Assembly: GCF_035084215.1 (NCBI RefSeq)
Contig: NC_090333.1
Coordinates: 60,574,001 to 60,638,000 of the forward strand
DNA from: Heptranchias perlo
Lineage: Eukaryota
Reading direction: 5' to 3'
Length of the DNA: 64,000 nucleotides
Numbering within the stretch: the stretch's first letter is position 1; every line of letters begins with the position of its first letter. A program made the translations under genes and the position numbers. The notes beneath the pieces were generated by a model. The model made no database searches. It saw only the letters and a program-made list of their open reading frames with translations, and was not told the DNA's origin. Of the stretch, positions 9,609 through 30,012 are shown piece after piece.

Positions 9609-10110
9609 CCACTTTCCTCTATTGTCTTGTAGGGTTGTAACAAAATTCAGAGAGTGCCTCTTGGAACTGAGGTGGTGTAGTGGAGTCTCCAAGCAGGTTT
9701 AGAAGGAATGGTTCCCAAAATAAAAGCAGTATTTTACTTCATAATTAATAAGTCACTTGATTTGAAGTCTCCCATGTGATATTAGAGACTAAGTTATAAA
9801 ATCAATTATTCCTTCACTGACATGAGGAAAGCGAGGAGAAAATCAAACTTCTGGTTCTGCTGTTTTGGGGCAAGATTTGACATCAGCAGGAATCAATTAT
9901 GGCTGCAATGCAATGAAATACAACAAGATTGCACTTTATCGCTGGACTGTTCATGCAACAATCAGGAACAAAGAACAAAGAAAACTAATGTATATGAAAC
10001 ATGAGCTGATATTTTTCAGCAGCCTCAGATTGTATGAAATTTATGCAGTTATTTTCAACATACAAAATAAATCATGTTTTAATATGAAAACCAAGAATTG
10101 CCACTCTCAC

Positions 10111-10326
10111 CAGAAATGCTGTTGAGGGATCCACGCCAAATGTGTCCTCAAACTTCCATTTCCAAGCTTCGTGATTATGATGTTTAAAATTAATTAGAAG
10201 TTTACTCAGTGCATCATCCAAAGCACCAGCTTTCCATGCTTTAACATTGAGAAACTTCTTAATCTCAATCACATCCTGTTTTGTAATGATAATCTCTGCA
10301 TCATAATGAACTTCATTGTTATCAGG
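10111..10326 (-). CDS. CLCC1: CLCC1 coding exon 4
   Basis: ttcctctag|CCT...CTG|gtgaga; 216 nt; [26 protein letters not shown]...[34 protein letters not shown]. Confidence 0.95.
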
Positions 10327-13447: not shown

Positions 13448-14019
13448 CAGAGTTAGGTTACACACTAGGAAGCATTTATTTTTGCAGAGACATCGCCCTC
13501 TTGAACAAACTGCTGAGACATATGGTGAAAGGGAACTTGACAAGTTCCTGAAAGAAGATGACATTTCCAGTTAAAGAGGACAAATTGGTACTTATTTGGC
13601 CTTATGATGAGTCATGGGCAACTGTGATTTTTTTTAGGAATTGGGATGGAATATCCCAACGTTTTTCTGATTTGGCCAGTGTTTTGCCCCTCTCAGGAGA
13701 GGGCATTGCTAGGGTGGATGGTGAGTGAGGTTACGACGTCAACTGATAAGGATTGGTTTAATTAGCTTGATGGTTTTTCCACATCCTTTTTATAATTTCA
13801 TATATTGCAGTCATTTCTAGATATAAATTCTACATTTCTAATATTCTCTCAATACTAATTTCTTATGATCATTAGCTTTTTCTCAAAGCCTGTTGATTTG
13901 TGCAGTCGGATGTAGTTTATCCATGATTTATTAAACCAAACGGCTAGGGATCCGAACAATTTTTGTCCTGATAAAAATTATTTATCTACAGACTATCCCT
14001 TGGTAACATTTTCTGGACG

Positions 14020-14310
14020 CTTTCACCTGTACGTTGATGGCACCCGGCTCTACCTCACTGCCTCCTCCACTAACCCAAAGGTTGCTGCCACGGTCTCAGA
14101 TTGCTTGCCTGATATCAAATCAAAGCCCTGAGGTTTTCAGTGCCCAACAACGTGTCTAACCCTGTGGTCCATAACCTCCTGTATGCCATCTCAATCTGAG
14201 TCAGGGTGTGGATCTTTGGCGTCACTTCATGCCAACTCCAAACTTCCATTATAATTACACTTGTACACTGGCCCTTTCCCCACACTGCCCTATCCTGTAT
14301 GCAGCCCGAT
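14020..14310 (+). mobile_element. Old L2 LINE fragment
   Basis: ttcacctgtacgttgatggcacccggctctacctc reads FHLYVDGTRLYL, similar to the L2 RT motif FHMYADDTQLYL. Confidence 0.5.
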
Positions 14311-14675
14311 ATCAGCAAATGATCAATGGAGTTTTATTACATCCAGTTCCTAACAAGGATAAATCTTACATCCGGGTGCAAGTGTGTGGCTGAGTTTCAG
14401 TACCGACACAAAGATGGCTTCAGATACAAACGGTCCCAGTGTTCACCTTGAACATACCAGCTATATCTCCCATGCTTTCAGAGTGCGGCTTACAGCCATT
14501 ACAAGTACGGTGATCACTGCAGCACAATACTAGCATTGCTAAGGCTTGGGAGAAAAACCCCAGAAACTTGGTGCAGTATTATACTTCATTTCGACCATCA
14601 CTCTTCCGGGTTCTGTCCATTATGATTAAAAAGAGATATTGACCTGTGAGCCAGAGCTGCATATCCCCATCAAGA

Positions 14676-15740
14676 GGCCCAAAGGCAGGGATAAAAGGCC
14701 CGAGAACAGAGCGAGAGGAGACACCCGAGAGCAGGGATAAAAGGCCCGAGAGCGGGGATAAAAGGCCCGAGAGGAGAGGCCCGAGAGCGGGGATAAAAGG
14801 CTCGAGAGGAGAGTACGAGGAGAGACCCGAGAGCAGGGATAAAAGGCCCGAGAGCAGAATGAGAGGAGAGGCCCGAGAGCGGGGATAAAAGGCTCGAGAG
14901 GAGAATGAGAGGAGAGGCCCGAGAGCGGGGATAAAAGGCTCGAGAGGAGAGTACGAGGAGAGACCCGAGAGCGGGGATAAAAGGCCCGAGAGCAGAATGA
15001 GAGGAGAGGCCCGAGAGCGGGGATAAAAGGCTCGAGAGGAGAATGAGAGGAGAGGCCCGAGAGCAGGGATAAAAAGCTCGAGAGCAGAGTAAGAGGAGAG
15101 GTCCAAGAGCAGGGATAAAAGGCTCGAGAGGAGAGTACGAGGAGAGACCCGAGAGCAGGGATAAAAGGCTCGAGAGGAGAATGAGAGGAGAGGCCCGAGA
15201 GCAGGGATAAAAAGCTCGAGAGCAGAGTAAGAGGAGAAGCCCGAGAGCGGGACTAAAAGGCCCGAGAGCTGAATAAGAGGAGAGGCCCAAGAGCAGGGAT
15301 AAAAGGCCCGAGGGAAAGGCCCGAGTGTGGGGATAAAAGGCCCAAGGGAAAGGCCCGAGAGTGGGGATAAAAGTTCCGAGAGCAGAGTAAGAGGAGAGGC
15401 CCGAGAGTGGGGATAAAAGGCCCGAGAGGAGAGGCCAGAGAGTGGGGATAAAAGGCCCGAGAGTGGGGATAAAAGGACTGACAGGCCCGAGAGCGGGGAT
15501 AAAAGGCCCGAGAGGAGAGGCCCGTGAGTGGGGATAAAAGGCCCGAGAGGAGAGGTCCGAGAGTGGGGATAAAAGACCCGAGAGGAGAGGATAAAAGGCC
15601 CGAGAGGAGAGGCCCGAGAGCGGGGATAAAAGGCCCGAGAGGAGAGGCCCAAGAGCGGGGATAAAAGGCCCGAGAGGAGAGGATAAAAGGCCCGAGAGGA
15701 GAGGCCCGAGAGCGGGGATAAAAGGCCCGAGAGAGGGGAT
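14676..15740 (+). repeat. Purine-rich, CpG-rich compound minisatellite
   Basis: About 28 copies of a 21-bp module GGCCCGAGAGCGGGGATAAAA alternating with 25-bp (46-bp unit) or 14-bp (35-bp unit) GA-rich modules. Confidence 0.95.
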
Positions 15741-16821
15741 AGAGGATTGGTTAACGGGCAGAAAACAGAGAGTAGGAATAAATGGGTCATTCTCAGGTAG
15801 GAGATTGTAACTTGTGCGGTGCCGCAAGGATCAGTGCTTGGGCCTCAGCTGTTTACAATATATATTAATGACTTAGATGAAGGGACCGAGTGTAATGTAT
15901 CCTAGTTTGCTGATGATACAAAACTAGGTGGGAATGTAAGCTGTGAGGAGGACGTAATGAGTCTGCAAAGGGATATCGACAGATAAGTGAGTGGGCGAGG
16001 GGGTGGCAGATGGAGAATTAAGTGGGGAAATGTGAGGTTATTCACTTTGGTAGGAAAAATAGAAAAGCTGAATATTTTTTAAATGGTGAGAACCTATTAA
16101 ATGTTGGTGTTCAGAGGGATTTGGGTGCCCTTGTACACGAAACACAGAAAGTTAACATGCAAGCAATGAGGAAGGCAAATGGTATGTTGGCCTTTGTTGC
16201 AAGGGGGATGGAGTACAAGAGTAAGGACGTTTTGCTGCCACTGTACAGGGCTTTGGTGAGATCACACCTGGAGTACTGTGTGCAGTTTTGGTCTCCTTAC
16301 CTAAGGAAGGATATAAGTCTTAGAGGTGGTGCAACGAAGGTTCACTAGATTTATTACTGGGATGAGAGAGTTGTCCTATGAGGAGAGATTGAATAGAATG
16401 GTCCCAAATTCTCTGGAGTTTAGAAGAATGAGAGGTGATCTCATTGAAACATATAAGATTCTAAGAGGTATTGACAGGGTAGATGCTGAGAGGATGTTTC
16501 CCTTGGCTGGAGAGCCTAGAACTAGGGGACATAGTCTCAGGATAAGGGGTCGGACATTTAGGACTGAGATGAGGAGGAATTTCTTCACTCAGAGAGTTGT
16601 GAATGTTTGGAATTCTCTGCGCCAGTGGATTGTGGATGCCCAGTTGTTGAGTATATTCAAGACTGAGATCGATAGATTTTTGGACTCTAAGGGAATCAAG
16701 TGAAATGGGGATCGGGCAGGAAAGTGGAGTTGAGGTCGAAGGTCAGCAACGATCTTATTGAATGGCGGAGCAGGCTCGAGGGGCCGTATGGCCTACTCCT
16801 GTTCCTATTTCTTATGTTCTT
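15735..16821 (+). mobile_element. CR1 LINE family A, 3' 1.1 kb
   Basis: [42 protein letters not shown]; tail ending ttcttatgttctt. Confidence 0.95.
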
Positions 16822-17356
16822 AAGAACTGTTACCAAATAGGAACAGTGAGTTGCTCCAAAGTGGAGCAAAATATCATTATCTCCAGTTTCTTCAACAAGT
16901 TCTTTGATGAATACACAGTGACCACCGATTACTTTCTCTGTAAATCTTACAGCGTCCAAGGAGATATGCATCAGCTTGACACTTTAGGAAACCAGTCCTT
17001 CCTGGCTAGGAGACACCCTTCCATCCTCGAAGTTAAAAATATCCTCACATAACCAGCTAGATAAATACACTGTCATTCGGACATCTTAGCAACTTAACTG
17101 GTAATGCTTTTATTCTGATGGGGACCCAAAAGGAGGAAGCACAGGTGAGGAGAAAAAGGAGTCACAAGAAGCGAGAATTGCATTTGAAAATAAATAGTAA
17201 ATAGCCATCCCGATTTCTACATGTGGTCTAGGATTTGCAATCCCAGGATCAAAGTAGACATCCAGGATAATATATTTAGTCTAGTTTTGAACTATATGTA
17301 GATGCGAAAAATACCAACAAAATTCTTTTCAAATATCCTGTTACTGGACTACTTAC

Positions 17357-17467
17357 CAAACCTAATTTTCCAATCTCCAGCAGCAGTTTATTCAGGTATC
17401 TCTTAAAAACAGGATTGCAACTGCTTTCTGTTGACTCAGCTGATTGTTTCTTTCCACATTCGTCAAA
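17357..17467 (-). CDS. CLCC1: CLCC1 coding exon 3
   Basis: tctttaacag|TTT...TTG|gtaagt; 111 nt; [37 protein letters not shown] (human ...[21 protein letters not shown]). Confidence 0.95.
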
Positions 17468-18039
17468 CTGTTAAAGAAAAATTCACAGCTCATTTATCTA
17501 ATATACTTCATACCATGCTTATATCAATACGATACCTGTGTAAAAATCACATGTTCGCAAACAAAATGGACAAGCCTATTTCACATACTGCAATACAAGT
17601 ACTGAGCATTACCACTGCCAGCATAAATCATCAAGCTGCACACCCCTTAGCTATTATTCTTCAATTCCCCATTTTTAAAATAATATCAGTATTAAAAATA
17701 AATATATGAACTTGCCTGACATCTTAATAAATGCTTTCGTGATGTGAAATTACTCACTGTAGTTGCAGGCTTCTTCATTCTATCAATACATTACAGTGTC
17801 TACATAAAACTAGGTTTTTTTTTCATTCGTATGGTGGGTGGAGGATAAAGAGGGCCGGATATTCTATTTGTGGATGGAGACTTACAAATTAAGAATAGTG
17901 ATAGTTTTCTGATCTTTTTTCTGTAGAATTTATATTTATGAGTACTGAAAGATCTGAACATTTACCCTAAAATCACAGATTAAGGTAGCTTGCCTATGCA
18001 TAAGATTTTACTTACATGAGAAATGTTTGTTTTCCACTC

Positions 18040-18330
18040 CCTTCTCTGAGATCTCTACCACTAAGAAGGACAAGAGCAGCAATGTCATGGAAACACCAAG
18101 TTTCCCTCCAATTCACCCACCATTCTGACTTGGACATATATCATTGTTCCTTCATTGTTGCTGGAGCAATGTCCTGGAATTCCCTACTTAATACCATCGT
18201 AGGAGCACCATCACCACATGGATTGCAGTGGTTCAAGGAGAAGGCTCACCACCACAATCTCAGGGCAACGAAGTATGGGCAACAAATGTAGCTTTGTCAC
18301 CATCACCCACATCCCAACAACAAATAATTT
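18040..18330 (+). mobile_element. CR1-group family B 3' end
   Basis: Similar to 31100-31390. Confidence 0.8.
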
Positions 18331-18454
18331 TTAAAAATATTCTATTCCTGGTAATGCATGTTGGTTGACAAATACCACAACCTGCTTACAGACTAAATGC
18401 GATAATTTGCCAGTGGCATTGCTCATGGTCAGTTGATAAATATAATTAGATTAG

Positions 18455-18460
<6 letters not shown>

Positions 18461-18498
<38 letters not shown>

Positions 18499-18530
18499 AT
18501 ATATATACATACACACACTCATACACACAC
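18461..18530. repeat. (TA)n/(CA)n microsatellite
   Basis: Direct dinucleotide runs. Confidence 0.95.
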
Positions 18531-19389
18531 AAGATGGTGATGGAGTTGGGAGAGACACTTCAGAAACTTACATCGAAACTACAGCACAGAAACAGGCCAT
18601 TCAGCCCACCTGGTCTATGCTCCACACAAGCCTCATCCCTCCTTACTTCATTTAACCCTAACAGGATACCCTTCTATTCCTTTCTCCCTCATGTACTTAT
18701 CTAGCTTCCCCTTAAATGCATGTATGCTATTTGCCTCAAGTACTCTTTGCGGTAACGTGTGGAAACTTGTTCCATACAGCCACCTAGTGAACAGAGGCTA
18801 CAACTACTTGTCAATTGACATAGTAAAATTGAATGGAGAATGTTGACAAAGCAATTTACACTGGTAAATATTGACAGGATATGCAGTACATGCATCATAC
18901 GTACTGAATGGGGTGATAGTATACATTGTAGCTGCGGTGCGCTGGTGGTGGAGGGATTGGATGTTTAAGGTGATGTATGGGCTTCTGATCAAGCGGATTG
19001 CTTTGTTCTGTATGTTGTCAAGCTTCTTGAGTGTTAGAGCAGTTTCACGTATCCAAGCAAGTGGAGAGTATTCCATCACACTCCTGACTTGTGCCTTGTA
19101 GGTGGTGGAGAGGCTTTGGGGAGTAAAGAGACGAGACACTCGCTGCAGAATACCCAGCCTCTGACCTGTTCTAGTAATCACGGCATTTACGTGGCTGGTC
19201 CAGTTGAGTTTCTAGTCAATAGAGACCCCCTAGGATGATGATGGTGGGGGATTCGGCGATGGTAATGTCGTTGACTCTCTCGTTGGAGATGGTCGTTGCC
19301 TGGCACTTGTGTGGCGCGAATGTTACTGGCCACTTATCAACCCAAGCATGGATGCTGCACGAGGGCATGGACTGCTTCATTATCTGAGG

Positions 19390-20988
19390 TGGAGATGACC
19401 TTCGATAACCAGTTCTTTACCCAAACACACGGAACAGCCATGGGGACCAAATTCGCACCCCAATACGCCAACATTTTCATGCACAAGTTCGAGCAGGACT
19501 TCTTCACTGCACAAGATCTCCAACCAACACTATACACCAGATACATCGACGACATTTTCTTTCTATGGACCCACGGCAAGGAATCACTAAAGAGACTACA
19601 CGATAACATCAACAAGTTCCATCCCACCATCAAGCTCACCATGGACTACTCCTCAGAATCAGTTTCTTTCTTGGACACACGAATCTCCATCAAAGACGGG
19701 CACCTCAGCACCTCACTCTACCGCAAGCCCACGGACAACCTCACGATGCTCCACTTTTCCAGCTTCCACCCTAACCACGTCAAAGAGGCCATCCCCTATG
19801 GACAGGCCCTGCGAATACACAGGGTCTGCTCAGACGAGGAGGAACGCGATGGACACCTACAGACGCTGAAAGACGCCCTAGTAAGAACGGGATATGACGC
19901 TCGACTCATCGATCGACAGTTCCGACGGGCCACAGCAAAAAATCGCATAGACCTCCTCAGGAGACTAACACGGGACGCAACCAACAGAGTACCCTTTGTC
20001 GTCCAGTACTTCCCCGGAGCGGAGAAACTACGCCATGTTCTCCGCAGCCTTCAACATGTCATCAATGAGGACAAACACCTCGCTATGGCCATCCCCACAC
20101 CTCCACTACTCGCCTTTAAACAGCCACCCAACCTCAAACAGACCATCGTTCGCAGCAAACTACCTAGCTTTCAAGAGAACAGCGTCCACGACGCCACACA
20201 ACCCTGCCACGGTAACCTCTGCAAGACATGCCAGATCATCGACACAGATACCACCATCACACGAGAGGACACCACCCACCAGGTGCATGGTTCATACTCC
20301 TGTGACTCGGCCAACGTTGTCTACCTCATACGTTGCAGGAAAGGATGCCCCAGAGCATGGTACATTGGCGAGACCATGCAGACGCTGCGACAACGGATGA
20401 ACGGACACCGCGCAACAATCGCCAAACAGGAGGGTTCCCTCCCAGTCGGGGAACACTTCAGCAGTCATGGACATTCATCCACCGACCTTCGGGTAAGCGT
20501 ACTCCAAGGCGGCCTTCGAGACACACGACAACGCAAAATCGTCGAGCAGAAATTGATAGCCAAGTTCCGCACCCATGAGGACGGCCTCAACCGGGATCTT
20601 GGGTTCATGTCACGCTACACGTTACCCCACCAGCGAACAAATGTTATCTGTTTTTAATATAATGGGTCATTTGCTGGCTCTCTCTGCCTTCCGGATGTTT
20701 CTGCCTCTCTCTGTTTTTTTTCTCTGTTTTTTTTCCCTGTTTGTTTTTTTGTTGAATGTGTATTCGGGGGTTCTGCAGGTGACACCTCTCTGTCTGAACA
20801 CGGTGATTGCCTTGGCAACGGGCAGTTGCAGGGGCAGTCTGTAAACACCATGTATTGTTCTATATGTATAAATGCGTAGGCTTCAAGGAGCTCCTGAAAC
20901 ATTTACCTGAGGAAGGAGGAAGTCTCCGAAAGCTTGTGAATTTAAAATAAAATTGCTGGACTATAACTTGGTGTTGTAAAATTGTTTA
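19390..20988 (+). mobile_element. Penelope-like retroelement (Neptune-type), 5'-truncated: RT C-half + Cys linker + GIY-YIG endonuclease + 3' pseudo-LTR
   Basis: Open frame to 20657: GTAMGTKFAPQYANIFM, YTRYIDDIF, FLD, LYRKPT, IPYGQALR; CHGNLCKTC; VVYLIRC...WYIGET...RMNGH; 13-bp TSD TCATTATCTGAGG at 19377-19389 and 20989-21001. Confidence 0.95.
20901..20941 (+). ncRNA. Minimal type I hammerhead ribozyme in the Penelope pseudo-LTR
   Basis: ATTTAC-CTGAGGA-A-GGAG(GAAGT)CTCC-GAAA-GC-TT-GTGAAT: stem I ATTTAC/GTGAAT, stem II GGAG/CTCC, core CUGAnGA and GAAA, palindromic AAGCTT stem III. Confidence 0.8.
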
Positions 20989-22120
20989 TCATTATCTGAG
21001 GAATTGCGAATGGAGCTGAACACTGTGCAATCATCAGTGAACTGCCCCACTTTTGACCTTATTATGGAGGAAAGGTTATTTATGAAGCAGCTGAAGATAG
21101 TTGGGCCTAGGATGTTACTCTAAGGAACTCCTGCAGCAATGTCCTGGGGCTAAGATGATTGGCCTCCAACAACCACAACCATCTTCCTTTCTGCTAGGTA
21201 TGACTCCAGCCACTGAAGAGTTTTCCCCTTGATCCCTGTTGACTTCAGTTTTACTAGGGCTCCTTTCATGCCACACTTGGTCGAATGGTGCCTCGATGTC
21301 AAGCGCAGTCACTCTCACCTCACCTTTGGGATTTGTCCATGTTTGGACCAAGGCTGTAATGAGGTCTGGAGCTAAGTTAAACGGACCGTCGGTGAGCAGG
21401 TTATTGGTGAGTAAGTGCCGCTTGATAGCACCGTTGACAACTCCCTCCATCATTTCGCAGATGATCGAGAGTAGGCTTATAGGACGGTAATTGGCTGGAT
21501 TGGGTTTGTCCTGCTTTTTTGTGGACAGGACATACCGGGGCAATTTTCAACATTGTCAGGTAGATGCCAGTGTTGTAGCTGTGCTGGAACGGCTTGGCTG
21601 GAGGCAAGACTAGTTCTGGAGCACAGGTCTTCAGAACTACAGCTGGGATGTTGTCAGGACCCGTAGCCTTTGCTGTGTCCAGTGCTCTCAGCAGTTTCTT
21701 GATATCACGTGGAGTGCAACTAATTGGTTGAAGGCTAGCAGCTATGATGGTGGAGATCTCGGGAGGAGGCCGAGAAGGATCATCTACTCGGCACTTCTGG
21801 TTTCAGCCTTGCCTTTTGCACTCATGTGCTGGGCTCTGTCATCATTGAGGATGGGGATGTTCATGGAGCCTCATATCATATTAAATGATGATATAATGAT
21901 TTTAAAATAAATGTTCAGAAATAAAAATCTAATACATTTAAGTACAAACTCATTGACTCTAAATTCCATCTTTAATACACGGTAACTATAGCAAATTCAG
22001 TTTCACTTTTCTGTGCAAAAACACATGAGGAATAGGAAAAATTGTCTTTATAAATTGTTTTTGAAAAACAATTTCTTTATTTGGTAAAAAAAAGTTACCA
22101 GTTTCACATAACAAAAAGTT

Positions 22121-22186
22121 TATATAACTCAAAGCTACAATCAGTAGGTTAGGAGACCAAAGCCTTATCCATTAGACCACTGGAGC
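22121..22186 (-). pseudogene. tRNA-Arg(CCT)-derived pseudogene
   Basis: GCTCCAGTGGTCTAATGGATAAGGCTTTGGTCTCCTAACC... compared with vertebrate tRNA-Arg-CCT GCCCCAGTGGCCTAATGGATAAGGCACTGGCCTCCTAAGCC; T arm decayed, 3' acceptor strand absent. Confidence 0.7.
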
Positions 22187-22908
22187 TGTTCCCTCTCAGT
22201 TGGCATAATCTTAGCTCAACATCTCTAATTAATAGTCAGGCTGTGATCAATAACTGAGCTTGTAGAGAATCTGGGCCACATCCTATCATTCCAAGCTTAT
22301 GCTAGATATTTCAGTTTGTATTGTCTCCATTTTATCACCAATTTCTCCTTAATACTGCTGTTAACTGATTTTGCAAACTTGCCAAGGGGTAGAGAAATAC
22401 TGCTTTACAATCAGCAGATAGGCAACGAAAGTTCAAAGTGCAGCGGACCAACCTTTGTAGCTTTCTTTTCGCCATCGAGATGTGGTGTTTGCCTTGGCAG
22501 AATGCTCCGTCCTGCAGCTCTATTGAAAGCCAACAGAATTCACTCAACTTGTGAGTTTGAGTGAATGTGAACAGTAGCAGTTCAATACTTGATCTTTCAG
22601 GAATTCAGTTGCCAATTTTACTTTTCTACAAATTTCATCTTATTTCATCGTATATCAATTAAATAGTAACATATGTTAGAATTGACAAATTGAGTTCTTT
22701 ATTAAATTATTTTATTTGTATAATTCAATTGTCATCCGTAACATACATTGCAACTCCAAATGTAGCTTTTGCAACAATCCAGCAACACAAATCGCACTTA
22801 GTTGTAGAGTTTTTATTCCGTCTCTTTTGCTCTTCTTTAATTTATGTAATTAATTTATGGCACCAGCAATCACAATGAACTGGGGGAAGAAGAAATCACA
22901 TTACTAAC

Positions 22909-23034
22909 CCGTTTTTGTAAATTATCAAGTTGTCTCTCACAACTAGAACAATCAGGACAGAAATCTTTCCCCCGATTATCTTCTGTAAAGTCCTCAGTGG
23001 TCAGAGTTTCAGTATCGTCCTGTCCATCGCTGGT
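22909..23034 (-). CDS. CLCC1: CLCC1 coding exon 2
   Basis: ttttcgtcaaag|ACC...CGG|gttagt; 126 nt, phase 0; ends CPDCSSCERQLDNLQKR, in frame with exon 3. Confidence 0.85.
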
Positions 23035-23271
23035 CTTTGACGAAAAGAACGGAAAAGCACTTAATTCACTGAACACTTAAAATACATTTTAAAATGTAAT
23101 ATGATGAGTAATATAGATATCGGACAGCTGATTACTGGTTACTTTAAGCTGTTCTAAACTGTAACTACTGAATCAGTCGGAGAAAGTGAAGAAATATTTT
23201 AATGCGTTTATTTTGAATTTAAATTTCCTTCAATAGTAGGCATGCATCCAAAACATGTAAAAAAACACAAT

Positions 23272-23600
23272 GGCCCAGATTTTGCTGCCAAAATAACGGC
23301 GAGTTTAATGGCATTCGCCGTTATTAATGTGTAAATCGTAGTGAAAGGATTTGAAATTCAGAATTCTATGACTCAGGTCACGGCAATATTGATCTGTTTA
23401 ATTCATTCACTGTTGCAGATGAGGTAAGCCATTGGCTGTGCTGCTTTTAAGGTCCCTGATTCGCCATATGCTTGCTGCTACATATTCAAATTACTTTCCC
23501 AGGAAATTTTGGTGTAAGCTCGCAACAGGAAGATTGATGGTGAAACAGCGTAATTTATGGTGTATTTTGCTGATCATGCTGTTCCAGAAAATTCTGGGCC
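23272..23600. mobile_element. Harbinger-derived MITE
   Basis: TIRs GGCCCAGATTTTGCTG / CAGAAAATTCTGGGCC; flanks AAT/ATT; first ~65 bp match the Harbinger end at 27178-27240. Confidence 0.7.
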
Positions 23601-24163
23601 ATTAATTTAGGTGGATTCAGAGTTTCAAGATCAGTTTACTTAGAAACAATACTGATGCTGTATTCAAACAAATTTGCATATATGGTACATCGGTTTTGTA
23701 CCACAAGTATTATTAAGCCATTTCCTGTCAGAGGAGGTGACTTATGTCAGACTTCTGTCAATATTCTCTGGAACTGACTGCTCATGGTAGCTTCCATTAG
23801 ATGCTGTCAGGCTAAAAAAAATTATAAATGAATGAGGAAGTTTGATTTATGCTGGTTGCAAGACGCTAAATTAGAAGTGGAGTTTGGGGTCATCATGTGG
23901 CCAATTCTTGTATGGGCAGAATGGAGAAGAGAAACAAGCTGAATTATAATAGATACAAACACATTTGATCAAAGTTGGCTGGGAAACTGGCTGAATTACA
24001 AGGTAAGAAATGCCAAAATTATCATGAATGTAGCAATTTAGACAAAAACAATGATGCCAATATTTTGGAAAGTTTTGTTGCAATACTTTACTTCATATTA
24101 TTTGGAGCTTAAAATGAGGTAATTGAATTCTGCTGCAATAAAACTTGCTGCACATTTAATTAC

Positions 24164-25914: not shown

Positions 25915-27243
25915 AGCTCAGGTATCTACTTTGGTAGGCAAGTACTGCAACATGTCCAGGCACCGGAAGCGTGATTTCAGCACCCCTACTGTCCTCTCCA
26001 CTACTTGGCGCGTGCACATATGTGCACGGTTGTACCTTTCCTGTACTGCACCATTGGTCCTGTGGTAGGATGTCATCAGCCAAGGCTTTAGCGGGTAGGC
26101 CTGGTCACCTAAGATCCATCCAGATCCTTGCCAGGCTCTGGTGAAGGCATCATATAAGTTTGAGTGCCAAAGGACAAAGGCATCATGAGCACTTACCCGG
26201 TGACCTGCACTGACATTCATGATCCGCAGTTGGGCATCGCAAAGGATCATCACATTTAATGACTGGTACCCTTTCCTGTTGATGTATGTCACAGGTGCAC
26301 AATAGGGTGCCTTCAATGGTACGTGGGTTCCGTCGACAGCCCCCCTTCACTTTGGGGAAGCCAGCGATCCTGTGGACTGCAATAGACCTCTCCCTTTGCC
26401 ACGCTGGGGACATGTCAAGGCTGATGAAGTCAGAAGCCCTGCGGAATATGATATCTGTGACCTGCTGAATGCAGACTCTCGCTGTGCTCTGGGTGATGTT
26501 GCACACATCACCGGTGTCTGACTGAAATGATCCACATGCATAAAATTTGAGGGCTGTAGTTACCTTCATGGCCACTGACAAGGCCCTGCGGAAGTTAGAA
26601 TGTGGCTGAAGGTCCTCTTTTAACATTTCAGAGGTGGTCGATTGCCTCCTTACTAAAGAGTAGCCCCCTCACACAGAGCGCCTCTGACATCATCATGAAA
26701 GACAGCCTCTCCCTGTAGACTCTCTGGGGTAGGTAATTGTTCCTCCTGGTGAACCTCCGGGCATGGTGGCCGACTCCTCGTTATTGTTTCCTGTGTCGGC
26801 CTTCCATGCTGTACCGTGCAGGATTGTTGATGTTACATAAATGTGAAAAAAATCTGACACCCTGGGTCTCACAGATACTTCTACAAAGAATCTCACAGCT
26901 AGAAAGCTCCCTCTGTCCGAGTTGAGGCTTATTTAAATATGCGCGGACCATAAATTGCGCCACGACAGGGTACATGAGTCACTTCAGACTTTCTGTGTTG
27001 AGTTTAGTTCGAATCTACCAGAAAATGCAGCAACTTCACGCCATTCAATGCATTTCCAGGGTGAGGCAGGCGGCGAGATGCCGTTTTCGCAAAGTTAAGG
27101 GCAGAGCAGAACAACTCAGACAGCAACTTTTGGATATTAGCGTTTAACCGCACACCTACTCCTCCCCTGAAGTTGCTGTACCATTTACGCATAGATAAGG
27201 GCAAGCGTCATTAGCCTTACTATCATTTTGACAGCATAATTTG
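25915..27243 (-). mobile_element. PIF/Harbinger DNA transposon, frameshifted DDE transposase (HARBI1-like)
   Basis: ALKFYACGSFQ, IAGFPKV / AVDGTHV, YINRKGYQSLNV, SAHDAFV, WILGDQAYPL, YNRAH...RQVVERTVGVLKSRFRCL; at least 2 frameshifts. Confidence 0.92.
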
Positions 27244-30012
27244 GTTTTAACTAGGAACCTATAACTTGCTAATACTTTGTTAAAGTAGTAACTTAAACGA
27301 GATAAATTAGTTTTAAAAAATAACTAAAAATAAACCAAATGAATTAATTACGTAATAACTTTAATAAAGTAAATAATTAAAACAAGGTTAGATAGAGATG
27401 GCAGTGCAGGTGGTGTGCCGTAACTGCAGCATGTGGGAGTTTGTGGAGAGCAGCATGATCCCAGGCAACCACATCTGCAGTAAGTGTCTGCAACTCGAGG
27501 AACTTCGGCTCAGAGTTGTTGAGCTGGAGTCCGAGTTGCAGACATTGCGATGCATCAGGGAGGGGGAGAGTTACCTGGACAATTCGACCCAGGAGGTAGT
27601 CACACCCCTTAGGTTAGGTAGTGGTTTAGCTTTGGTCAGTGATCAGGGACAGGAGGATGTGACTGCGAGTCAGGCAGGTAAGGAGACCCCAGATGCAGTG
27701 GTGGAGGAGCCTCAGCCTTTGCCCTTGCCCTATAGATGCAAAGTACTTGCTACCTGTGTGGATGAGAACAAAGACTGCAGGGAGGATGGGCAAATTGCCT
27801 GTGGCACCGTGGTACAGGAGGCCATTCAAGTGGGGGGAGCGAAAAGGAACGTGGTAGTGAATAGTCAGGGGTATACTGTTCTCCGCAGCCGCGACCGGGA
27901 GTCCCGAAGGCTGTGCTGCCTGCCTGGTACCATGGTTAATGACATCTCCTCGTGGTTGAAGAACTTGGAGCAGGAGGGGGAGGATCTAGATGTCATGGTC
28001 CATGTAGGAACCAATGACATAGGTAGAACTAGGAATGAGGTTCTGCTGAGGGAATTTGAGGAGCTAGAGTTCAAATTAAAAATCAGAACCTCAAAAGGTA
28101 ATAATCTCTGGATTACTATCTGAGCCACATGCAAATTGACATAGGGACAAACAGATTAGATGGTTAAATGCGTGGTTGAAAGAGTGGTGTGTGAAGCAGG
28201 GGTTTGAATTCATGAGGCAATGGCACCTGTACTGGGAAGGGGCTGCACTTAAACCAGGCTGGGACCAGTGTCCTGGCGAATCGAATAACTAGGGAGGTAA
28301 AAGGTGGGGGGGGCAGTGGGAGGGTTTGGGTAAGGGTAAATTTATAAATCTAAAGAGAAAGGTCAAGGCTGCAGAGCAGAGTAGCGATTTGGGTAAAAAC
28401 AAGCAGTGTGTGTCAGGAAGGGACAGTTTAACAATGGTAATATGGCATTACTGACTAAGGTCACATCAGGGAAAAATAGTAAAAAGTTAAAATTAAAGGC
28501 ACTGTATCTGAATGCACAAAGCATTCGTAACAAGATAGATGAATTAATGGCACAAATAGAGATAAATGGGTTTGATCTAGTAGTCAATACCGAGACACGG
28601 ATGCATGGTGACCAAAGTCGGGAACTAAATATTCCAGGGTATTTGACTTTTAGAAAAGATAGGCAAAATGGAAAATGGGGGAGGTGGTTGGCTAACCCTG
28701 ATAATAAAGGATGAGGTAAAGGCAGTGGTGAGAAAGGATCTTAGCTCAGGAAATCAGGATGTAGAATTAGTATGGGTGGAGCTAAGAAATAACATGGGGC
28801 AGAAAACACTGGTGGGAGTATTTATAGGCCCTCTAACAGTAGTTATAGTGTAGGACAGAGTATAAATCAGGAAATTAGAGGAGCAACTAACACAGGTAAT
28901 GTAATAATCGTGGGGGACTTTAATCTTCATATATACTGGGCAAACCAAATTGGCAAAAGTAGTTTGGAAGACGAGTTCATGGAACGCATTCGAGGCAGTT
29001 TTCTGGAATAATATGTCGAGGAATGAACTAGGGAACAGGCTAGTTTAGATCTAGTATTGTGCAATGAGACAGGGTTAATTATTAATCTTATAATAAATCC
29101 TCATAATATGACAGAATTTCATATTGAGCTTGAGAGTGATGTAGTTAAGTCCGAAACCAGGGTCTTAAATTTAAACAAAGCCAATTATGTAGCTATGAGG
29201 GGCAAACTGGCTAAGGTAAATTGGGAAATTAGATTAAAAAATGATGGTAGATAAGTAATGGTGAACATTTAAAGAAATAATTTATAATTCTCAATGAATA
29301 TACATTCCCTTGAGAAATAAAAACTCCATGGGAAAAGTGATTCAACCGTGGCTAATTAGAGAAGGTAAGGATAGTATTAGATTAAAAGTGGCTTACAATG
29401 TTGCCAAAAAGAGCAGTAAGACTGAGGATTGGAGGGTTTTAGAAATCAGCAAAGGATGACCAAGAAATTGATAAAGAGGGAGAAAACAGAATATGAGAAT
29501 AAACTAGTAAGAAATATAAACACAGATTGTAAGCGTTTCTACAAGTATGTAAAAAAAATAACAGAAGTGAACATGGGTCTTAGAGGCATAGGCAAGAGAA
29601 TTTATTTTGGGGAATAGGAAATGGCAGAGACATTAAACAAATATTTTGTATCTGTCTTCACAGTAGAAGACATACAGTGGCAAACCAAGGATCTAATGAG
29701 TGAGAAACTTAAAATAATTAATATTAGTAAAGAAAAAATACTGTAGAAATTAATGGGACTAAAAGCCAACAAAGCCCCTGGACCTGATGGTCTACATCAT
29801 AGGGTTTTAAAAGAGGTGGCTGCAGAGGTAGTGGATATGTTGGTTTTGATCTTCCAGAATTCCCTAGATTCCAGAACAGTTCCCGTGCATTGGAAGAGGC
29901 AAATGTAACCTCGTTATTCAAGAAAGCAGCGAGAAAGAAAACAGAGAACTGTAGGCCAGTTAGCCTGACATCAGTAGTAGGGAAAATCCTAGAATCTATT
30001 AAGGATGGAGTG

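Follow-up and report, generated by a model that had tools for sequence, protein, structure and literature searches.

A decayed RASD1 fragment in a shark CLCC1 intron is probably one copy of a dispersed, hAT-like gene-capturing transposon

Introduction

A decayed RASD-family (Dexras/Rhes-like) GTPase sequence inside an intron of another gene raises the question of how it came to lie there. We asked this of a 64,000-nt stretch of the Heptranchias perlo genome (G000:C9:60574001-60638000, hereafter the window), in which a preliminary description had recognised such a relic, antisense in an intron of CLCC1 and split by a retro-insertion, and had read it as an unprocessed remnant, possibly of a lost RASD paralog once nested in CLCC1. 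Our results favour a different origin, with a probability that we put at roughly 0.88: the relic would be one of at least eight decayed, dispersed copies of a segment comprising the RASD1 promoter, exon 1 and the start of the intron, lying between shared transposon ends, which a non-autonomous hAT element captured once and a related transposase then spread.

The relic and its host intron

MCLC-family exons were found by profile on the minus strand of the window, from 24298 to 333 (7/150 frames scanned). The exon at 17357-17472 is spliced in RNA contigs X5, X6 and X9, and the loose end of the contigs maps to 10297-10326, which joins this exon to the one ending at 10326. Because the RNA contigs splice across the relic and the MCLC exons are on the minus strand, the relic lies antisense within a 7.0-kb CLCC1 intron, as had been proposed. 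In three runs, RNA contigs were found for the CLCC1 exon but none for the relic, which is no evidence that the relic is silent. The parts of the locus, labelled according to the reading that we favour, are as follows.

10075..10326, minus strand: CLCC1 exon downstream of the host intron (MCLC profile 116-191, E = 2.4e-31; open frame, exon edge at 10326)
14256..14339, plus strand: inner 5' arm of the element, common to the other copies
14340..14621, plus strand: captured RASD1 promoter and 5' UTR, about -300 to -1 (promoter-only profile, pairwise alignment, aligned copies)
14622..14675, plus strand: captured start of the RASD1 exon 1 coding sequence, with a 2-nt insertion after codon 4; the left AAGA is its end
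14676..15741, plus strand: GA-rich minisatellite, 5' part of the later insertion (Tandem Repeats Finder; units of 21-46 nt and multiples)
15742..16821, plus strand: 5'-truncated LINE end (RVT_1 piece at 15807-15902, E = 4e-4)
16822..17032, plus strand: remaining part of captured RASD1 exon 1, opening with the right AAGA; its P-loop is broken, and it has one 3-nt and one 9-nt deletion
17033..17100, plus strand: first about 68 nt of RASD1 intron 1, with donor TT
17101..17190, plus strand: inner 3' arm, likely transposon-derived and common to the other copies (includes the GNAFILM reading)
17191..17280, plus strand: 3' sub-terminal repeats and eroded terminal inverted repeat, hAT-like (3'-arm profile; end uncertain, 17268-17280)
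17357..17472, minus strand: CLCC1 exon upstream of the host intron (MCLC profile 76-112)

The RASD ancestry of the relic is well founded. With the intact RASD1 gene of this genome (on C25) as query, tblastn against the window gave a match at 16792-17028 (E = 4e-11), and the genome-wide search returned window positions 16804-17028 (E = 8e-10). The relic peptide alone had no match in Pfam, the PDB sequences or a large protein set, and an Rfam search of the window gave none either. An AAGA repeat at 14672-75 and 16822-25 bounds the inserted 14676-16821, and excising this segment, as had been suggested, restores a colinear RASD exon 1. The join is correct because both halves correspond to consecutive model positions of a profile made from the other copies, free of the window: 14256-14675 matches model positions 126-584 (E = 4.5e-76) and 16822-17268 matches positions 581-1065 (E = 4e-65).

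Between the AAGA repeats lie the minisatellite and the LINE end, which bears out the retro-insertion. The LINE end (~1.08 kb), which we take to be of CR1/L2 type, shares 75-89% of its bases over about 1 kb with other copies, both those in the window and those in the fetched loci, and is younger than the element that it interrupts. By eye, the unit of the minisatellite (14676-15741) resembles the LINE body at about 15768-15790, and the minisatellite may have grown out of the inserted LINE.

Aligned as DNA with RASD1, exon 1 of the relic shows the predicted 2-nt frameshift after MIKK (codon 4), the destroyed P-loop and the eroded DTSG motif, together with one 3-nt and one 9-nt deletion; exon 2 is missing. 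It is equal to the genome's RASD1 at 186/259 aligned bases (72% identity), and to a RASD2-like gene at 151/259. The CpG observed/expected ratio is 0.38 in the relic versus 0.96 in RASD1, and the CpG island is gone.

Extent of the copied RASD1 sequence

The likeness to RASD1 does not start at the ATG. Its start lies about 300 nt before the ATG and about 150 nt before a TATA-like motif, and a promoter-only profile matches RASD1 at -299..-148 (E = 6.5e-13); a UTR-only profile by itself had no match to RASD1. The TATA position is eroded in the window copy (about 14497-14506) and retained in copy C21 (copies are named by contig). Farther upstream, comparison of the inner 5' arm with RASD1 -520..-300 gave nothing significant (159/500 shuffles).

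At the other end, a spliced RASD1 alignment to the window stops at the end of exon 1, where the preliminary description had let the likeness end; the next 70 nt turned out to be RASD1 intron 1. Five copies compared with the RASD1 intron start gave a summed score of 178.5, reached by 0/1000 shuffles (60+/-18), and the donor reads GT in copies C5a, C21 and C9b versus TT in the window copy. The intron of RASD1 itself, spliced in RNA contigs, measures 880 nt with GT..AG borders; it contains a ~480-nt high-copy repeat (L002, about 1980-2470), and about 400 nt are without repeat.

Since the promoter and the intron stub are present, the relic is not an mRNA retrocopy, and no exon-exon junction of a processed pseudogene is seen; calling it unprocessed was right. 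We also considered that LINE machinery had copied a fragment of a RASD1 transcript, unspliced or read-through, or that such a fragment had become part of a SINE-like element, as might be thought from the LINE that interrupts the window copy and from the richness of this genome in LINE relics. However, that LINE is much younger than the element, the cargo begins upstream of the TATA-like motif by about 150 nt and stops at one intron point in five copies, the 3' ends have no A-rich tail, and the inverted repeats at both ends belong to a transposase-bearing family whose flanks match over 8 bp (see below), so that we regard retroposition as highly unlikely.

In the lost-paralog reading, a RASD gene nested in CLCC1 has a 70-nt intron, and GNAFILM is the start of its exon 2. 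The unprocessed structure agrees with this, and in the window copy comparison of the GNAFILM stretch with the exon 2 boundary gives a score of 30.5, which 1/1000 and 2/500 shuffles reach, with a weak likeness in C5a (21/500). This likeness, however, was picked after the fact, and in the four sister copies it is reached by 21, 89, 141 and 293 of 500 shuffles, which leaves three without exon 2 likeness. The stretch scores higher against 4/4 sister copies (32.5-64.5) than against exon 2, and pooled comparison of the inner 3' arm with the RASD1 intron or with exon 2 was negative (137/500 shuffles each). The same arm resembles the inside of transposase relics, 4/6 of which match at 1-4 of 200 shuffles. 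Searched with RASD1 exon 2 DNA, neither window 14001-24000 nor the 10-kb locus of any of the seven other copies gave a match. GNAFILM thus belongs to the putative transposon arm rather than to an exon 2 start, and we would read its likeness to exon 2 as chance. A permissive alignment had also offered an exon 2 start near 17790; it was rejected, with a region score of 29 versus 37+/-6 for shuffles and exon 2 DNA unmatched there.

Because exon 2 is not carried, the element could never have encoded a whole GTPase; as a RASD gene it lacks the second coding exon, and its P-loop and frame are broken. The only genomic match of the exon 2 DNA query was an unrelated RASD1 fragment on C40 (G000:C40:11120003-11120160; L009, L024), which holds the last about 170 nt of exon 2 to the stop, is 77% identical, and is interrupted by a stop and a 17-nt deletion. 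The 30 kb examined around it showed neither element arms nor an inverted repeat.

A dispersed family of copies

A RASD1 5' DNA query found six relics elsewhere in the genome, on C15, C5 (two), C21, C6 and C9, and the 5' part of the window as query found a seventh, on C14. Together with the window this makes eight copies on six contigs, a number that is a lower bound. DNA searches (six copies) and protein searches (five) overlapped in four, which suggests that few further exon-bearing copies remain. Queries made from copies C6, C15 and C14 and from the 3' part of the window recovered only known copies. A match on C37 and the weaker genome-wide tblastn matches were rejected as further copies after about 50 loci had been rescanned.

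The copies align over one extent with equal limits of the RASD1 cargo, three of them having extra deletions or insertions, and the arms, which are not RASD1 sequence, are common to them. In an all-against-all comparison no flank homology was seen beyond the arms except for common repeats. The preliminary description had named an intronless multi-copy family elsewhere in the genome as what would refute its lost-paralog reading only; what we find is a dispersed family of at least eight copies. With at least seven further copies that have equal RASD1 breakpoints and equal transposon arms, a lost nested paralog is very improbable.

Transposon ends and target duplications

The copies end in a terminal inverted repeat of about 15-21 nt on both sides, with internally repeated ATCCYGGGAT-like motifs. 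Both ends score above the 95% background in 5/8 copies; the window copy retains the 3' end only. A 3'-arm profile made without the window matches 17117-17268 (E = 1.1e-13) and leaves the 40-kb RASD1 locus unmatched, and the corresponding 5'-arm profile matches 14256-14310 (E = 0.002) and nothing farther upstream, the outer 5' arm and the 5' inverted repeat being undetectable with it in the window copy.

A 21-nt terminal pattern had five matches in the genome versus none for a reversed control. One of these is copy C21 and the remainder are without RASD cargo. Three matches (L062, L065, L064) had no convincing second end. Behind the cargo-free match on C24 lies a disrupted coding frame, for which a search gave 45 matches, amounting to about two dozen dispersed relatives that are 63-81% identical. 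This C24 transposase relic (G000:C24:35641300-35643500) also has two 100% identical copies, on the small contigs C286 and C493, which are either haplotype duplicates or a recent segmental duplication. The closest non-repetitive protein to the C24 relic is P0141 (E = 1.6e-4), the long repetitive proteins P0139 and P0140 having been left out as transposase relatives. P0141 has a zf-BED domain (E = 5e-12) and a DUF659 match below the cut-off (E = 0.002), and by tblastn it aligns to 6/11 transposase-relic loci (best E = 3e-18). The shark transposase pieces matched hAT families of Pfam in 0/12 and 0/28 cases, and one protein search with them found nothing; by eye, the transposase relic has motifs that we take to be hAT-like.

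The transposase loci share their ends with the RASD copies. Arm profiles of the RASD copies match the 5' ends of 7/11 and the 3' ends of 6/11 transposase loci, over about 110 and 90 nt, respectively; the inner 5' arm alone came near significance in only 1/7 transposase relics. With ends set by eye and loci without two recognisable ends left out, the 8-bp flanks agree at 22/40 bases in five RASD copies and at 24/40 in five transposase relics, giving a pooled 46/80 that was reached by 0/20000 permutations (best single relic, 7/8). Other flank lengths from 2 to 12 were not significant, and length 13 gave p = 0.014. When the ends were set by a score matrix, the five RASD copies gave 18/40 at 8 bp (p = 0.011). 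In each RASD copy the target duplication is imperfect, with 3-6 of the 8 bases in agreement, and the five 8-bp flanks are all different. The window copy's own duplication is unreadable, because its 5' inverted repeat is missing.

Elements of the hAT superfamily are defined by inverted repeats, sub-terminal repeats, a BED-finger transposase and 8-bp duplications (PMC4890040). The shark element has short terminal inverted repeats with sub-terminal repeats and an eroded 8-bp duplication; in place of a BED-finger DDE transposase of 600-800 aa, its partner is represented by broken relics only, homologous to P0141.

Taken as a mechanism, a genomic segment of ancestral RASD1, about 640 bp long, would have been taken up by an internally deleted hAT element, probably through template switching or gap filling during repair or replication, as modelled for Pack-TIRs (PMC8277862). 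Given the shared breakpoints, different flanks and 8-bp duplications, the family transposase would then have moved the 1.0-1.1 kb chimera to at least eight sites, the CLCC1 intron (in antisense) among them. The window copy has lost its outer 5' arm, and was split later by the LINE end and minisatellite. It can give rise to no protein and most likely does nothing today; any residual promoter activity would run antisense to CLCC1.

Donor, decay and age

P0001, which carries the label RASD1 of the hexanchiform shark Heptranchias perlo, has exactly the sequence of the intact RASD1 gene on C25. The genome has one more intact RASD gene, on C43, which by our own reading is RASD2-like; protein-level searches found no third. 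At 223 sites diagnostic between the two, the copies follow RASD1 at 164, the RASD2-like gene at 19 and neither at 40. In a tree of 217 non-CpG exon 1 sites and six copies (C5b and C14 were left out as too short), RASD1 lies 0.0125 from the node of the copies versus 0.21 for the RASD2-like gene. The tree is star-shaped, with copy branches of 0.15-0.28 and low support among the copies (15-66). Judged from these sequences, the donor is the RASD1 lineage itself, and a donor so close to RASD1 again argues against a lost paralog.

In exon 1, the majority state of the copies differs from modern RASD1 at 25 positions (10 CpG, 10 synonymous and 5 non-synonymous). At the 21 CpG sites of RASD1, CG is kept in 8 of 104 scored copy positions and 63 read TG or CA. 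Because the CpGs are mostly TG or CA, the founder was a live CpG island, and each copy has decayed independently, losing its CpGs and reading frame.

A related possibility is that a transposon made the capture but from a short-lived RASD1 duplicate, or that the copies spread partly by segmental duplication. The copies do agree with one another, against modern RASD1, in about 10 synonymous states and in the intron start, and the separate C40 exon 2 fragment indicates that other RASD1 duplications happened. Shared differences of this kind are nevertheless what purifying evolution of RASD1 since the capture leads one to expect, and segmental duplication is at odds with flanks that, apart from common repeats, are unshared beyond the arms and with an 8-bp flank of its own for each copy. 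We consider both variants improbable.

Under capture from RASD1 itself, the age of the element can be approached in two ways. The mean distance between copies is 0.46 (27 pairs, 0.35-0.58), a value likely inflated by misalignment. If the rate is that of the epaulette shark, 7e-10 per base per generation (PMC10587355), 0.2 per lineage corresponds to some 3e8 generations, too many if taken literally and pointing to an age that would be well over 100 million years. The second approach is codon 33 of RASD1, which encodes serine in 17/17 shark and ray proteins and threonine in chimaera and in 4/4 bony fish. Copies C21 and C6 have a clean threonine, and C15 and C9b a threonine with a one-base shift; the window copy is uninformative and the site is missing in three copies. 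This may hint that the capture predates the shark-ray split, and it is a hint only because one founder back-mutation would look alike. At codon 5, where chimaera has threonine, states are mixed across seven copies.

We therefore put forward only tentatively, at slightly less than even odds, that this Pack-hAT is the oldest gene-carrying vertebrate DNA transposon yet seen, having captured the RASD1 promoter and exon 1 before sharks and rays split and been scattered in the ancestral elasmobranch genome. If so, equal insertions are expected at orthologous places across sharks and rays, where their presence or absence would be a marker in deep shark and ray phylogeny, and the copies would be a datable fossil of the ancestral RASD1 promoter.

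Relation to known gene captures

We assign the element to the Pack-TIRs, as a Pack-hAT, because it works like the known cases and has the testable hallmarks of a multicopy Pack-TIR: a RASD1 cargo with its parent on C25, ends of one transposon family on both sides, and dispersed copies with equal breakpoints and distinct, partly kept duplications. A survey of 100 animals that focused on young cases reported 370 young Pack-TIRs, 208 of them hAT and four multicopy; elephant shark, the sole 'shark' entry in its supplements, had none (PMC8277862).

The closest parallel is Pack-hAT-N8_XT of the western clawed frog, which carries 291 bp of the CAPSL 5' UTR and likewise has hAT-type ends around host gene 5' sequence, distinct target duplications and several copies off the parent's chromosome (PMC8277862). 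The shark cargo, in contrast, is larger (about 640 bp, with promoter, whole first coding exon and intron stub), and the element has at least eight copies and is far older (about 0.46 substitutions per site apart). Ssk-FB4 of Drosophila melanogaster is also a multicopy capture by a non-autonomous inverted-repeat element moved in trans, but it is a young element that carries almost the whole gene, codes for protein and has duplications of 9-10 bp (PMC8277862), whereas the shark copies are all dead and exon 2 is missing. As in rice Pack-MULEs and plant Pack-TYPE elements (PMC8277862; see also PMC8903248), a GC-rich 5' fragment of a gene, enclosed by inverted repeats, has been multiplied by transposition; unlike Pack-MULEs, the shark element has hAT rather than Mutator ends and a vertebrate host. 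It is notable among Pack-TIRs for its copy number, cargo and age.

Literature searches on Pack-TIR/Pack-hAT elements, RASD1 and shark hAT transposons turned up no account of the element, although it may be catalogued in Repbase or Dfam, which lay outside this search; 'RASD' is absent from 12 supplementary files of PMC8277862 and from the main text of PMC9004415. Plants commonly show multicopy capture of genes by DNA transposons, whereas the 100-animal survey found four cases and none in a cartilaginous fish (PMC8277862). With its eight copies, its cargo of a complete promoter and coding exon, and an autonomous family that can still be recognised, the shark element would point to repeated transposition of captured genes in early jawed vertebrates, kept readable by slow shark evolution. 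The locus also illustrates how a relic of this kind, when read from a single window, can be mistaken for a lost paralog.

Other features of the window

Several further features lie in or beside the CLCC1 region. On the plus strand, 19275-20657 holds a 460-codon open frame (RVT_1, E = 1.5e-6) with a GIY-YIG-like end by eye, from which we judge it, also by eye, to be a Penelope-like element within a CLCC1 intron. Between CLCC1 and a WD40 gene lies a broken transposase on the minus strand (25921-26668; DDE_Tnp_4, E = 1.9e-29), presumably of PIF/Harbinger type. A 243-codon frame at 27392-28123 (plus strand) looks by eye like a LINE ORF1 relic and has a weak Pfam match only. The WD40 exons themselves span 37529-57594 on the minus strand, and we take this gene to be WDR47, by motif and by its CLCC1 neighbourhood.
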